64,000 nt of DNA from Vicinamibacterales bacterium. Its GTDB lineage: Bacteria; Acidobacteriota; Vicinamibacteria; Vicinamibacterales; UBA8438. The notes below the pieces were generated by a model. The model was given only the letters and a program-made list of their open reading frames with translations. It searched no databases and was not told the origin of the DNA. Of this stretch, positions 16,659 through 28,812 are shown piece after piece. Each line of letters starts with the position of its first letter. Position 1 is the stretch's first letter. Made by a program: the position numbers and the translations under genes. The stretch covers positions 5,714,592 to 5,778,591 of the forward strand of contig OZ220736.1 of the NCBI GenBank assembly GCA_965116825.1. Reading direction: 5' to 3'.

Positions 16659-17988
16659 CTCATGTATCCCCTCATTCTGCAAGCGTCAGATCACGCCGAA
16701 GACCTCTCGATACACCCGCTGTTCCATCAGCATGCTCCCGAACGTCTCCATCAACGGACGAATCCGATCCTCGGGCCAATTGGGAAGATGGTGGTACAGC
16801 ATCAACCCCTGCCGAAACAACGAATGCGTCCGCCGTTTCACCGTGTTCGCCTTCAACCACCGGTCATAGCCGATCCGCTCGCCCGCCGCACCCAGCAACG
16901 ACAGCACAGCAATCGCCAACGCGCTGAGCAGCAGCAAGCGGTCCCGCCGGTCCGGGCGCGACACATGCATCGATGACAGCCCCATCCCGAAGCGCATGTC
17001 CTTGATGTCTCGGAAGCCCGCCTCGATCCCCCAGCGCTTGCCGTAGTGGCGAATCAACACCCGCGTCGGGACCGACGCTTCGCTGGCCACCAGACACCAC
17101 GGTTCGTCCATCTTCTTATCGTGTACGCACACGACCGCGCCCACTGGCCACTCGTGCACGTCGGTCACCCGAGCCCCCACCAGCCGCCGCGCACGCCCAC
17201 CGGCGCCAACCCACGCGGCGGCCACGCGCCGTTCGCCGCGTGCGTTCGTCACATAGACGTCCCCACGCAGCCGAATCACGTATTCGAAGCCCAACTCCGT
17301 CGTCAACGCGTAGAACAGCTTGCAGTCGGCAAAGCCCCGATCGGCCACGATGGTGACTTTCACCCCGTCGGGCAGCACTTCGCGCAACCGGCACAGCACC
17401 TCGTACTCGTAGCGCCGCTGATTGTCCTTCAGCGTCGACGACGCCACCGTCTTCCATAGCAGGGGCGTTGCGCGCCCGTGCCCGGTCAACATCGACAGCA
17501 CGATCGTCTCCTGCTCGTCGGCCGCAAAACTCGTCCAATCCAGCGCGACGACCACTTCGGTGCGGGCGCCGATGAGGTACGGCGTCCAGTGGGCGAAGAA
17601 TGTCCAGACGTTGATGCCTCGATTGCTCAGGAGCCGGTCCACCTGCTTGACGCCATGTTTGGTCAACGTACCCATGGCTTGCGCCAGGCCGCGCCCCACC
17701 GCATGGATTGCCAGCGACGCACTCGTCAGCACGCCCAGGGTGGCGTTGGCCAGTGACAGCACCCGCTTGGCATGCAGGTCGCCTTCGTACAAGGTGTTGA
17801 TGAATTTCAGGAGGTCGTGTCTCCGAAGCCATCGCCCGGATGACATCTGCCGGTTTCCCTGTGGATGCATAGGAACCACATTCTAATTCAGGTGCGCTAT
17901 TCTGCCAACCTTTAGAATGCCAGACGTTCTATCTCGATAGGACTGGCGTCTTATTCGGTTCACATAGCAAAATGAGGGGATCTCTGAG
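16659..17988 (-). mobile_element. Complete IS4-family (IS10-like) insertion sequence, 1330 bp
   Basis: Terminal IRs CTCATGTATCCCCTCATTCTGC (16659-16680) and reverse complement CTCAGAGATCCCCTCATTTTGC (17967-17988) resemble IS10 ends. Perfect 9-bp target duplication GCTGCCCCG at 16650-16658 and 17989-17997. Confidence 0.95.
16686..17879 (-). CDS. IS4-family DDE transposase
   Basis: VALDWT, VADRGF and YGKRWGIEAGFRDIK (Y-x2-R-x3-E-x6-K signature); lies between the IRs. Start may be the ATG near 17846. Confidence 0.93.
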   Translation of the reverse strand: MVPMHPQGNRQMSSGRWLRRHDLLKFINTLYEGDLHAKRVLSLANATLGVLTSASLAIHAVGRGLAQAMGTLTKHGVKQVDRLLSNRGINVWTFFAHWTPYLIGARTEVVVALDWTSFAADEQETIVLSMLTGHGRATPLLWKTVASSTLKDNQRRYEYEVLCRLREVLPDGVKVTIVADRGFADCKLFYALTTELGFEYVIRLRGDVYVTNARGERRVAAAWVGAGGRARRLVGARVTDVHEWPVGAVVCVHDKKMDEPWCLVASEASVPTRVLIRHYGKRWGIEAGFRDIKDMRFGMGLSSMHVSRPDRRDRLLLLSALAIAVLSLLGAAGERIGYDRWLKANTVKRRTHSLFRQGLMLYHHLPNWPEDRIRPLMETFGSMLMEQRVYREVFGVI

Positions 17989-18130: not shown

Positions 18131-20872
<2,742 letters not shown>

Positions 20873-25017: not shown

Positions 25018-26328
25018 TCAGGGAGCGGTTTCCGGGTTGCCGTCGAGCCACGCCTTGACGGCGATGGCCTGCACTTCCTTGATGGAGAGCCGGCGCTCTG
25101 CGGCCAGCCGCGCGCAGTCCTCGAACTCCGGCGCCGCGTTGCGAATCGCGCCGTCGCGCCGCGCCACCTTGATGCGGACCGGGCCCACCGGCGTCTCGAC
25201 GGCTACCGCCTCCCGGTCGAGCCGCTCGCGCTCGGTCTCGGTCACCCGCAGGCCGATGGTGGTCGACTCGCGGAACAGGATGTCGGACAGCGCCTCGCGG
25301 CGCCCCGGCGGCGCCACCACGGTAACCAGCGTGCCGGGGCGGTTCTTCTTCATCTGGATCGGCGCGTAGAAGACGTCGAGGGCACCGGCGGCGGCCAGAC
25401 GATCCATCAGCACGCCGTAAATCTGCGGGTTCATGTCGTCGATCTGGCACTCGAGAACGACGACGCGCTCGCACGCGCCGGTCCCGGCGCCCTCCCCCAG
25501 CAGCGCGCGCAGCACGTTGGGGCGCCCGGCCGGATTCCGGTCGCCCGCACCGTAGCCTATCCGTTCGACGCGCATCGGCGGCGCCGGGCCGTAGGCGTCT
25601 GCGTATTCCGTCACGATGAGCGCGCCGGTCGGCGTGACCAGCTCGACCGGCGGTCCTTGCGCGTAGGTCGGAACTCCCAGCAGGAGCTCGGCCGTCGCCG
25701 GAGCCGGCACGGGCAGCTCGCCGTGCTCGCACTGCACCGTGCCCGAGCCGACGTTGAGCGGCGATGCGACGACGCGGTCGGGCGCGAGCCACTCCAGGGC
25801 GCGGACCGCCGCCACCACGTCCACGATGGAATCGACCGCTCCCACCTCGTGCAGGTGCACCGTCTCGACCGGCACCTGGTGAATGCCCGCTTCGACCTCG
25901 GCCAGACGGCGAAACAGCCTCGACGCGCGCTTCTTGCCGGCCGGCGACAGCGACGAGCGGTCGACGATGCCGTGGATCTCCGCGAGGCCGCGGTGGTGAT
26001 CGCGATCGTGGTCGTGCGAGTGCTCGTGGTCGTGCGAGTGCTCGTGGTCGTGCGAGTGCTCGTGGTCGTGCGAGTGCTCGTGGTCGTGCGAGTGCGGGCG
26101 GACGGGCGGCCGGGCGTCGGCTACCTCGCGGCCGATCGTCACGCGGAACTTCGCCGCACCGATCCCGCTCCGGTCGACGCGGTCGTTGCTCACACCGACG
26201 CCGTCGAGCCCCAGCGAGTCGACAGCCCTCTCCAGCACGCCGAACGGAACGCCCGCGTCGACGAGCGCGCCGGCAATCATGTCGCCGGATGCTCCGGAGA
26301 AGCAGTCGAGGTAGAGAATTCTGGACAT
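25018..26328 (-). CDS. larC: Nickel pincer cofactor biosynthesis protein LarC
   Basis: LYLDCFSGASGDM, His-rich tract, HLHEVGAVDSIVD, PVPAPAT, TPTGA, QIDDMNPQ, MKKNRPG, PEFEDC. Confidence 0.93.
   Translation of the reverse strand: MSRILYLDCFSGASGDMIAGALVDAGVPFGVLERAVDSLGLDGVGVSNDRVDRSGIGAAKFRVTIGREVADARPPVRPHSHDHEHSHDHEHSHDHEHSHDHEHSHDHDRDHHRGLAEIHGIVDRSSLSPAGKKRASRLFRRLAEVEAGIHQVPVETVHLHEVGAVDSIVDVVAAVRALEWLAPDRVVASPLNVGSGTVQCEHGELPVPAPATAELLLGVPTYAQGPPVELVTPTGALIVTEYADAYGPAPPMRVERIGYGAGDRNPAGRPNVLRALLGEGAGTGACERVVVLECQIDDMNPQIYGVLMDRLAAAGALDVFYAPIQMKKNRPGTLVTVVAPPGRREALSDILFRESTTIGLRVTETERERLDREAVAVETPVGPVRIKVARRDGAIRNAAPEFEDCARLAAERRLSIKEVQAIAVKAWLDGNPETAP
26006..26095. repeat. 5 x 18-bp perfect tandem repeat encoding the (HSHDHE)n tract of LarC
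   Basis: tcgtggtcgtgcgagtgc repeated five times, in frame. Confidence 0.95.
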
Positions 26329-26390: not shown

Positions 26391-27062
26391 CTACAGGCGG
26401 CCATGCTCCTTGAAACTGTAGTAGCGGGCATCGGCCAGCACCATGTGGTCCAGCACGTCGATGCCCATGATGGCCCCCGCCTCCACCAGGCGCGCCGTCA
26501 GGGCCACGTCGTCCTCGCTCGGCGTGGGGTCCCCCGACGGATGATTGTGAAACACGACGATCGCCGCCGCGCCCCCGGCGGTCGCCATCCGGAAGACCTC
26601 CCGCGGATGCGCCAGCGTCTCATCCAGCGTGCCCACCGACAGCAGCGCCGTGAGCAACACGCGGTGCCGCGCGTCGAGCTGCACCACGCCGAACTGCTCC
26701 ACCGACCGCGCCCCGTAGCGGGGCAGCAGGTAGCGCGCCATGTCGCGCGGCCCGCCCAGCCGGGTCCGCTCGTCGGGCAACGCGAGGGTGCGGCGCCCCA
26801 GCTCGATCGCCGCCATGATGCGGGCGGACATCGCCGGTCCGACGCCGGGAACCCCCTGCAGTTGCCCCTCGAGCGCGCGCGTCAACCCGTGTACTCCCCC
26901 GGCGTGGAAGAGCACCCGGTTCGCGATGTCGAGCGCGCTCTCGTGCTGGGAGCCGTGACCGAGAACCGCCGCGAGCAACTCGTTGTCCCCGAGCCCGGCC
27001 GGACCCAGTCGCCTCAGCTTCTCGCGCGGCCGATCGTGCAGAGCCAGTTGTCGTACGCTCAC
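26391..27062 (-). CDS. radC: RadC (JAB domain) protein
   Basis: RPREKL..ELLAAVL, GVGPA HhH, HPREVF, HNHPSGDPTPSEDD, LDH. Confidence 0.93.
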   Translation of the reverse strand: MSVRQLALHDRPREKLRRLGPAGLGDNELLAAVLGHGSQHESALDIANRVLFHAGGVHGLTRALEGQLQGVPGVGPAMSARIMAAIELGRRTLALPDERTRLGGPRDMARYLLPRYGARSVEQFGVVQLDARHRVLLTALLSVGTLDETLAHPREVFRMATAGGAAAIVVFHNHPSGDPTPSEDDVALTARLVEAGAIMGIDVLDHMVLADARYYSFKEHGRL

Positions 27063-27106: not shown

Positions 27107-27961
27107 CTACACACCCGCCGGCGGAAGCGGCGGGACCCAGCGGCCGCGGGCGACGATGTCAGCCCACCCGGTCAGCCGGATCTCCTGCTCCGTCCAGTCG
27201 ACGCGCTGCGCGCCGCCCGGCGATATTACGTCGGCGCTCCGGGCCGCGCCGCCGTAGCGGGCCGCCGCCACCGCCGCCGCGCACGCTCCCGTGCCCGAGG
27301 CGAGCGTCGGCCCGACTCCCCGCTCCCAGATGCGTATCCGAATCCGATCCGGACGCTCGACGGTCGCGAACTCCACGTTGGTCCCTTCGGGAAACCGATC
27401 GTGCGTCGCCAGCAGCCGCCCCAGACGCCGGAATCGGCTCTCGGCCTCTTCCATCGAAGGCGACAGCACGACGCACTGCGGGTTGCCGACGGACAGCACC
27501 ACGACGCGCACGCGCTCGCCGCCGACGGCCAGCTCTTCCTCGCGCAACCCGCGTGGCCGCCCCATGCCGGCGCGAAAGGTATAGCGGGGCGGCTCCGCGC
27601 GCAGCAGCGCCAGGGTCTTGAGCCCTCCTTCCGTTTCGATCTCGAGGGAACCCGCGGTCGCGCCGGCCGCGTCGCCGGAAACGGAATCGACCAGCAGCGC
27701 ACCCAGGCAACGCACGCCGTTGCCGGACACCTCGGCCCGGCTCCCGTCGGCGTTGAGCAGCCGCATCGTCGCTCCGGCGGGCGTCGGACGGTAGACGATC
27801 AGGCCGTCCGCGCCGACCCCGTGCTGCCGCCGGCAGATGTCCCGCGCCAGGCCGTCGAGCGCCGCGTCGCCGACCTCTCCCTCCTCGACGAAGAGGAAGT
27901 CGTTGCCGTAGGCGTGCGCCTTGACGAATCCCACCGCCGCGCGGGGCTGTCGTGCGTTCAA
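27107..27961 (-). CDS. dapF: Diaminopimelate epimerase-like protein, Ser/Ser active-site variant
   Basis: KAHAYGNDF, GVGADG, NADGSRAEVSGNGVRC, GNPQ, NVEF, WERGVGPTLASGTGACA. TTG start overlaps the upstream stop (approximate). Confidence 0.85.
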   Translation of the reverse strand: MNARQPRAAVGFVKAHAYGNDFLFVEEGEVGDAALDGLARDICRRQHGVGADGLIVYRPTPAGATMRLLNADGSRAEVSGNGVRCLGALLVDSVSGDAAGATAGSLEIETEGGLKTLALLRAEPPRYTFRAGMGRPRGLREEELAVGGERVRVVVLSVGNPQCVVLSPSMEEAESRFRRLGRLLATHDRFPEGTNVEFATVERPDRIRIRIWERGVGPTLASGTGACAAAVAAARYGGAARSADVISPGGAQRVDWTEQEIRLTGWADIVARGRWVPPLPPAGV

Positions 27962-28812
27962 GGCAGCTCCAGCGCGCGGAAGACCCACGTCAGCCCCGTG
28001 GTCACCCCGAGTCCGGCGTCCCGTGCCGTGAGGCCGGCCACCAGCGCCGCGTCCACCCGGACTAGGCCGCGTGTGAAGCGCGCGCCGAAACGGACGTAGC
28101 CGGAGCTGTCCGTCCCGGGCGGCGGCGTGCCGGACCGCGTATTCGCGCGACCGTTCACCTCACCGACGATTTCCGCGCCTTCCGCGAACGCCCGGGCGAA
28201 GGAAACGCCGTAGGTCAGCACGTCGTTCTGCCGATCCCCGCGGGTCGGGTCGCTCAGAATCCCCAGCCCGACGTTCCCCACCACGCGGAGCGACCGAATC
28301 GTCTTGCCGACCAGCAGCGAGTTGTAGAAGTCCATCGTATCGAGCCCGATCCCCTCCTCGTTGCCGGCGTTCGGCAGCTTGGTGGCGAATCGGAGCGCGA
28401 TCCCCGGTCGCACCGCCCCCTCGGACAAGAGACGGGTCTTGGCGCCGACGACCGTATCGGACCAGCTCGACGTGCGGTCGCCGCTGACGCGCAACAGGTG
28501 CGAGAGCGGCGCATCCGCCCGGCCGGTGATGTTCAGCATGTCGTAGGACACGTTGTCGATCTGCACCTCGGCGATCGAGCTCACGCCGATGCTGACGCCG
28601 AAGCGGGGGACGCTCCGGAGATCGCCGGTCAGGCCCGACACGGGAAAGTGCTGATCCTTCTGGTAGTCGAACCCGGCCTCGACCAGCACGAGGCCGCTGC
28701 CGATGGACTCCGGATCCTCGGTCACGAGCGGCCGTTGCTGGGCGGCCGCCGGCGCAGTACAGATGAGCAGGGCGAGCACGACGATTGCGGGAGCCACGGG
28801 TCGAAGACGCAT
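27958..28812 (-). CDS. Exported protein, probable outer-membrane beta-barrel
   Basis: Signal peptide AAA|QQRPLVTEDP; alternating amphipathic beta-strand pattern; C-terminal GLTWVF. Confidence 0.65.
   Translation of the reverse strand: MRLRPVAPAIVVLALLICTAPAAAQQRPLVTEDPESIGSGLVLVEAGFDYQKDQHFPVSGLTGDLRSVPRFGVSIGVSSIAEVQIDNVSYDMLNITGRADAPLSHLLRVSGDRTSSWSDTVVGAKTRLLSEGAVRPGIALRFATKLPNAGNEEGIGLDTMDFYNSLLVGKTIRSLRVVGNVGLGILSDPTRGDRQNDVLTYGVSFARAFAEGAEIVGEVNGRANTRSGTPPPGTDSSGYVRFGARFTRGLVRVDAALVAGLTARDAGLGVTTGLTWVFRALELP

Follow-up and report, generated by a model that had tools for sequence, protein, structure and literature searches.

dapF and its neighbouring genes

The window, the whole 64,000-nucleotide stretch of DNA that was analysed, carries a dapF gene for a putative diaminopimelate (DAP) epimerase with serine at both catalytic positions (Ser/Ser type; Table 1). 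The gene is a single uninterrupted frame, and an identical 284-aa product was present in the protein collection. The start codon, TTG, shares bases with the stop codon of the gene before it (TTGA), and GGAG lies 5 bases ahead of the TTG. The upstream gene encodes a protein with a signal-peptide-like start.

Table 1. Coordinates in the window of dapF, selected codons of dapF and adjacent genes
Feature	Position	Strand	Basis or remark
dapF, Ser/Ser-type diaminopimelate epimerase (putative), 284 aa	27107..27961	-	ORF translation, TIGR00652, HMMER alignments
Ser79 codon TCC, first catalytic position (Cys75 in Anabaena 9MRO)	27725..27727	-	HMMER alignment, model
Ser222 codon TCG, second catalytic position (Cys224 in Anabaena 9MRO)	27296..27298	-	HMMER alignment, model
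Gln162 codon CAG (GNPQ; His159 in H. influenzae numbering)	27476..27478	-	HMMER alignment, codon read
Cys85 (VRC), within helix 80-94	27707..27709	-	Model, alignment counts
Cys227 (GAC), within helix 223-237	27281..27283	-	Model, alignment counts
284-aa protein, stop overlaps dapF start by 4 bases	27958..28812	-	Without Pfam/NCBIfam match
radC-family gene, directly downstream of dapF	26391..27062	-	Profile match
larC (nickel pincer cofactor nickel insertion), second gene downstream of dapF	25018..26328	-	Profile match

The neighbourhood was compared across 29 loci of the same order. A homologue of the upstream gene lay within 1.5 kb of dapF in 10 of them, a radC-family gene at no more than 1.5 kb in 15, and larC partly inside the dapF flank in 11. 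The position of dapF between the upstream gene and radC-larC is a layout partly kept in the order, and it is uninformative on function. Other dap genes were near dapF in none of the 29 order loci (1.5 kb), in 1 of 30 phylum loci (a dapE-like gene) and in none of 80 short loci retrieved with the DNA pattern described below. In the genome carrying this dapF (G000), the gene is likewise not adjacent to the other dap genes.

Three further features of the window were recorded. LarC has a tandem His-rich insert in which HSHDHE occurs about five times, possibly a nickel store. An ORF at 18131-20854 (reverse strand, 907 aa) looks by eye like an NAD-dependent DNA ligase that is longer than usual, with an apparently duplicated helix-hairpin-helix region. 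A 397-aa ORF at 16686-17879 (reverse strand) resembles, again by eye, an IS4-type transposase.

The product belongs to the DAP epimerases and retains their substrate cage

The dapF product matched TIGR00652 over its full length with 189.4 bits (curated cut-off 114.65) and PF01678 with 132.7 bits (cut-off 34.7). It contains the motifs EVSGNG, TLASGTG, GNPQ, GNDF, NADGS, NVEF and ERG, and AY replaces GL of HGLGNDF. The original prediction had described EVSGNG, TLASGTG and GNPQ as altered and the substrate motifs as intact; when translation and codons were read again, every checked detail was exact.

DAP epimerases were the top-ranked matches by sequence and by fold. Placement in the HisR/CntK, DcsC, PhzF or proline racemase subfamilies was therefore rejected. 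DcsC (O-ureidoserine racemase, 7VDY), HisR (9CR1), PhzF and proline racemases share the two-domain fold with this protein. Profile scores were 223 bits for DcsC and about 30 bits for HisR, compared with 298 bits for DapF 9MRO, and PhzF and proline racemases were 13-18% identical to the product. G000 has separate PhzF-like and proline-racemase-like genes.

In HMMER alignments, Ser79 and Ser222 aligned with the catalytic cysteine pair of 9MRO, 3EJX, 2OTN and 8QZY. The canonical enzyme has two catalytic cysteines acting as a thiol-thiolate pair, and this protein has the two serines in their place. A structure was modelled using AlphaFold2 on a 143-row alignment (pLDDT 94.8, pTM 0.92). Helices were predicted at 80-94 and 223-237, each immediately preceded by one of the two serines, so Ser79 and Ser222 would sit directly at helix N-termini. 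PMC12039745 places the catalytic cysteines at helix N-termini as well. A Foldseek comparison of the model with the PDB ranked 9MRO first (TM 0.84, rmsd 2.2), and the top ranks were all DAP epimerases. None of these PDB matches had a title that marked it as a natural Ser/Ser structure.

Compared with canonical Cys/Cys DapF (EC 5.1.1.7; TIGR00652, PF01678; 9MRO, 3EJX, 1BWZ/2GKE), the structural alignment gave TM 0.84-0.85 and 32-36% identity. The two differ in both catalytic cysteines, which are serines here, and in His159, which is Gln. The DAP-binding residues are the same, and the Gln44 position holds Gly, as in Anabaena and plants. For the Anabaena enzyme, PMC12039745 names Asn13, Asn66, Gly76, Asn77, Asn164, Asn197, Glu215, Arg216, Gly225 and Thr226 as DAP binders. 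These residues map to N20, N70, G80, N81, N160, N195, E213, R214, G223 and T224 of this protein, and all are kept.

Serines at 221 and 226 were considered as helpers of the catalytic pair. They are Ser in 167 and 145, respectively, of 254 Ser/Ser sequences, and this protein has Ala at both, so for this protein they were rejected as required helpers.

The serine pair is conserved in the order and beyond

The nearest named relatives were Vicinamibacterales with 58-63% identity, which makes this order the likely source of the window. In a set of 120 nearest database proteins (the query counted in, 61-100% identity), Ser79 was found in 120, Ser222 in 119 and Gln162 in 116. The sole Ser222 exception reads like a local frameshift.

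A DapF match was present in 118 of the 121 order genomes searched, and nearly all were single-copy. From 68 of the 117 other matching genomes, 69 sequences were read, made up of the 29 best matches and 40 among the weakest; a second copy from genome G345 is included. All 69 were Ser/Ser, with Gln in 65 and His in 4 at the GNPH position. The first serine was encoded by TCG in 35, TCC in 28, TCT in 3, TCA in 2 and AGC in 1; the second by TCG in 35, TCC in 23, TCT in 8 and TCA in 3. In these sequences the serine residue is held at both sites across the order while its codon drifts. One way for the original prediction to fail was that the serines were unique to one sequence, and the two samples speak against this. 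Its proposal of selection for a serine pair gained support from the large conserved lineage and from synonymous codon changes at the two sites.

In the phylum, 241 of 251 genomes matched TIGR00652, a tally that takes in 3 unpublished genomes whose sequences were left unused. The listing comprised 150 matching places, with 108 further matches beyond it. From the listed matches, 90 were read (the 30 best and 60 hand-picked down the list), giving 57 Ser/Ser, 31 Cys/Cys and 2 Cys/Ser; these counts are biased to high scores and are not frequencies.

A DNA pattern in which the second serine, as a TCN codon, follows WERG matched at least 120 stretches, and about 2400 were estimated in the collection. 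Among the matches listed, 80 had long flanks, and their first site was Ser in 74, Cys in 4 and incomplete in 2. Titles of the pattern matches include Acidobacteriota, Actinomycetota, Blautia, Zixibacteria, Nitrospiria and Ignavibacteria; none of the 120 listed was cyanobacterial. A cluster look-up returned few organism names and no cyanobacterium, and a plasmid search returned distant matches only (at most 36% identity). Cluster representatives at 50% identity were also classed, and the best 150 comprised 63 Ser/Ser, 49 Cys/Cys and 3 Ser/Cys sequences and 35 that were fragments or frameshifted at one site. On an unrooted FastTree, Ser/Ser involved 2 changes, a provisional figure for the number of its origins.

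The genome requires an epimerase and has one recognisable DapF

G000 is a single contig of 7.39 Mb with 98.81% completeness. Profile searches found one recognisable DapF gene in it. Neither a second, canonical Cys/Cys dapF nor a match to ddh was found in G000, which answers a check named in the original prediction. A search of G000 for DapL matched 11 aminotransferases, all of which stayed below the TIGR03542 cut-off; partial stretches of 4 of them were then scanned again, and these too fell short of any DapL cut-off.

The DAP-route genes recognised were dapB, dapA, dapD, a dapE-like gene, dapF and lysA; a succinyl-DAP aminotransferase was not among them. dapB, dapA, dapD and the ArgE/DapE-family gene are adjacent, the last scoring below family cut-offs. 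dapD matched NF008808 with 262 bits (cut-off 204), and lysA was above its cut-off. MurE was above the DAP-ligase cut-off NF001126 and contains the DNPR motif, which we take to be a meso-DAP signature. A route of the dapB-dapA-dapD-dapE type ends in L,L-DAP, so this genome needs an epimerase. A literature search on meso-DAP in Luteitalea found nothing.

A possible route of the DapF2/Alr2 type was also looked for in G000, on the side of the PLP racemases. A single Alr scored above cut-off, and one further match, Orr-like, was partial. The latter (L301, G000:C1:1045859-1049347) is an Orr-like PLP-dependent racemase whose partial stretch scored 149 bits against a cut-off of 480, and an unrelated gene adjoins it. 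It may be a back-up source of meso-DAP. The GapMind preprint (bioRxiv 10.1101/2024.10.14.618325) describes DapF2 as non-homologous to DapF, and E. coli without dapF as growing normally while secreting DAP. Because E. coli grows without dapF, pathway need alone is no proof of DapF activity.

Relation to the published Ser/Ser class

The original prediction advised a search for earlier reports of Ser/Ser variants, and one exists. As described in PMC13728532, Lamer et al. (J Mol Biol 437:169375, 2025) identified DapF enzymes with two catalytic serines and the same fold. The same source states that a natural Ser/Ser DapF was active and that Ser-to-Cys replacement inactivated the enzyme of Anabaena sp. 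YBS01. In the genome of this strain a Cys/Cys DapF accompanies the Ser/Ser one, perhaps as a protection against oxidative stress. By that account, catalysis by paired serines and its link to oxidative stress had both been put forward in print in 2025. In the literature searched, PMC13728532 was the only paper found on this point.

The protein studied here shares the serine pair and the DapF fold with the Anabaena Ser/Ser enzyme, as far as the latter is described there. By these defining features of sequence and model, it is likely a member of the 2025 class, the Anabaena enzyme being known here by description alone. A difference is that Anabaena keeps a Cys/Cys DapF beside the Ser/Ser copy, whereas here no DapF other than the Ser/Ser one was found.

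According to the original prediction, double Cys-to-Ser mutants of canonical enzymes lose essentially all activity; the literature search found no paper with C73S/C217S double-mutant data. In Cys-type enzymes, Cys-to-Ser mutation is reported to hinder catalysis (PMC12039745) or to reduce it greatly (PMC11602996). A natural Cys/Thr racemase is described in PMC8142540.

His159 is replaced by Gln

His159 is one of the residues that PMC3581254 gives as catalytic in 1BWZ, and according to PMC12039745 no basic residue lies less than 4 Å from the catalytic sulfurs. The canonical enzyme has His159 in GNPH, and this protein has Gln162 at that position. His159 therefore cannot activate the serines in this DapF. 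Of 78 Cys/Cys sequences, 76 have His here, versus 114 of 254 Ser/Ser sequences. The remaining Ser/Ser sequences have Gln (125), Asn (9), Val (3) and others or gaps (3), in a set that is rich in the protein's own order.

A tree was built from the 299 rows left once fragments and duplicates had been removed and the order rows thinned to about one third. Gln, Asn and Val at position 159 occurred in separate Ser/Ser branches. The position changed 13 times among 210 Ser/Ser rows versus 2 times among 78 Cys/Cys rows. A statistical link of His159 loss to Ser/Ser was not found, with only 2 independent pairs (p = 1). The safe reading of these sequences is that His159 would be dispensable in many Ser/Ser enzymes.

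The literature search, which covered papers other than the text of Lamer et al. (2025), found no paper on a Ser/Ser variant with Gln at 159. A bolder proposal is that a whole acidobacterial order depends, for making lysine and its cell wall, on a thiol-free, His159-less DapF, with a Ser/Ser/Gln activation network unlike that of the canonical enzymes and of the Ser/Ser enzymes bearing His. We regard this as speculative and rather doubtful.

Proposed reaction and alternative explanations

Sequence, model, pathway context and analogy with the published class make it highly probable that the sole DapF of G000 is a working L,L- to meso-DAP epimerase of the Ser/Ser class, which would use serine hydroxyls for a two-base 1,1-proton transfer. 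The domains would close on free DAP. One of the helix-N-terminal serines would take the α-proton, and the other would donate a proton to the opposite face. By analogy, L,L-DAP would be the substrate of Ser79 and D,L-DAP that of Ser222. The serine hydroxyls may be tuned in the same way as the canonical thiols, by helix dipoles, backbone amides and the exclusion of water. The meso-DAP product would supply MurE and LysA. Since a natural Ser/Ser form was reported active in 2025, the protein is likely a further working member of the class and not a new activity.

The protein could instead use its serines to epimerise a different compound, for example lanthionine, a DAP analogue or a peptidoglycan-precursor residue, with meso-DAP coming from another enzyme. 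Gln at the His159 position and AY for GL in HGLGNDF would be in keeping with this. Gly-type DapF enzymes take lanthionine according to PMC12039745, and this protein has G53 at the corresponding position; PMC11602996 describes a predicted DapF that turned out to be a histidine racemase. However, the proximal and distal DAP-binding residues are all kept, and the Arg/Asn cage would leave no distal room for a peptide. The HisR profile score is far below that of DapF, G000 has neither ddh nor a second DapF, and the gene is single-copy in nearly all matching order genomes. We consider another substrate unlikely. The original prediction had raised a peptidoglycan-precursor residue as an example of a different substrate, and the retention of the residues binding both ends of DAP lends it no support.

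Even less probable is a DapF that is inactive or very slow and has been retained for structure or binding, as in the DapF-RppH complex, with meso-DAP supplied by a promiscuous PLP racemase. In E. coli and P. aeruginosa, DapF has a second role with RppH (PMC13728532), E. coli dispenses with dapF as described above, and G000 does have Alr and the Orr-like racemase. A dead enzyme, however, would not be expected to keep both serines through synonymous change in every order sequence read. The serine pair also recurs across phyla among the pattern matches listed, the whole substrate cage is kept, and activity of a natural Ser/Ser DapF has been reported (PMC13728532).

A takeover of catalysis by Cys85, Cys163 or Cys227 has a very low probability. 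The original prediction had named the cysteines of VRC and GAC as possible catalysts, and all three residues are Cys in 120 of the 120 nearest proteins. In the predicted secondary structure, Cys85 and Cys227 sit 5-6 residues into their helices and Cys163 lies on a strand. The Cys85 equivalent is Cys in 76 of 78 Cys/Cys enzymes, so Cys85 is probably ancestral, and in 190 of 254 Ser/Ser sequences. The Cys227 equivalent is Cys in 40 of 48 short-loop Cys/Cys enzymes and in 180 of the 254. Both Cys85 and Cys227 are missing from 9 of the 254 Ser/Ser sequences, and all three cysteines from 5. Because of their places in helices or on a strand, the ancestry of Cys85 and the absence of all three in those 5 sequences, the neighbouring cysteines are not expected to be substitute catalysts. 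On the alignments and the predicted structure, Cys85 and Cys227 are ancestral and not catalytic. Their exclusion, together with the status of this gene as sole DapF in a genome needing one, further supports selection for the serine pair.

Sequencing error or gene decay was rejected as having a negligible chance, because the frame is intact and the same residues recur in 119-120 of the 120 nearest proteins and, with varying synonymous codons, in all 69 order sequences.

Significance and other serine-containing active sites

Serines doing the work of the thiol pair are real but were published in 2025, and this locus adds modestly to that. Throughout an order abundant in soil and sea, the Ser/Ser form is apparently the sole DapF, which would make it a primary housekeeping enzyme there and not only a stress back-up. 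Thiol-directed DapF inhibitors may act differently on Ser/Ser enzymes.

The proton removed from the substrate has a pKa near 29. Natural variants, namely His to Gln at position 159 and Cys/Ser hybrids, help to ask how a serine removes it. Six natural Cys/Ser DapF sequences were seen, L038 and L280 in phylum genomes and L050, L065, L108 and L109 in named records, as well as three Ser/Cys sequences (P0168, P0257 and P0265). These mixed active sites are scattered over the tree and are possible intermediates or reversions.

A second Ser/Ser group has EKSGNGLRI or AISGNGVRI at the first site (L200 from G345:C255, L033, L060, L078, L079, L090 and L100). It spans Blautia, Zixibacteria, Nitrospiria and Ignavibacteria, is without the RC cysteine and often has AGY codons at the first site. 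G345 has a copy of this type besides the usual gene of the order. Finally, L294 (G205:C250) is Ser/Ser but has the longer ERGVEDET loop, which in other sequences of this phylum typifies the Cys/Cys type; it is possibly a separate origin of Ser/Ser.
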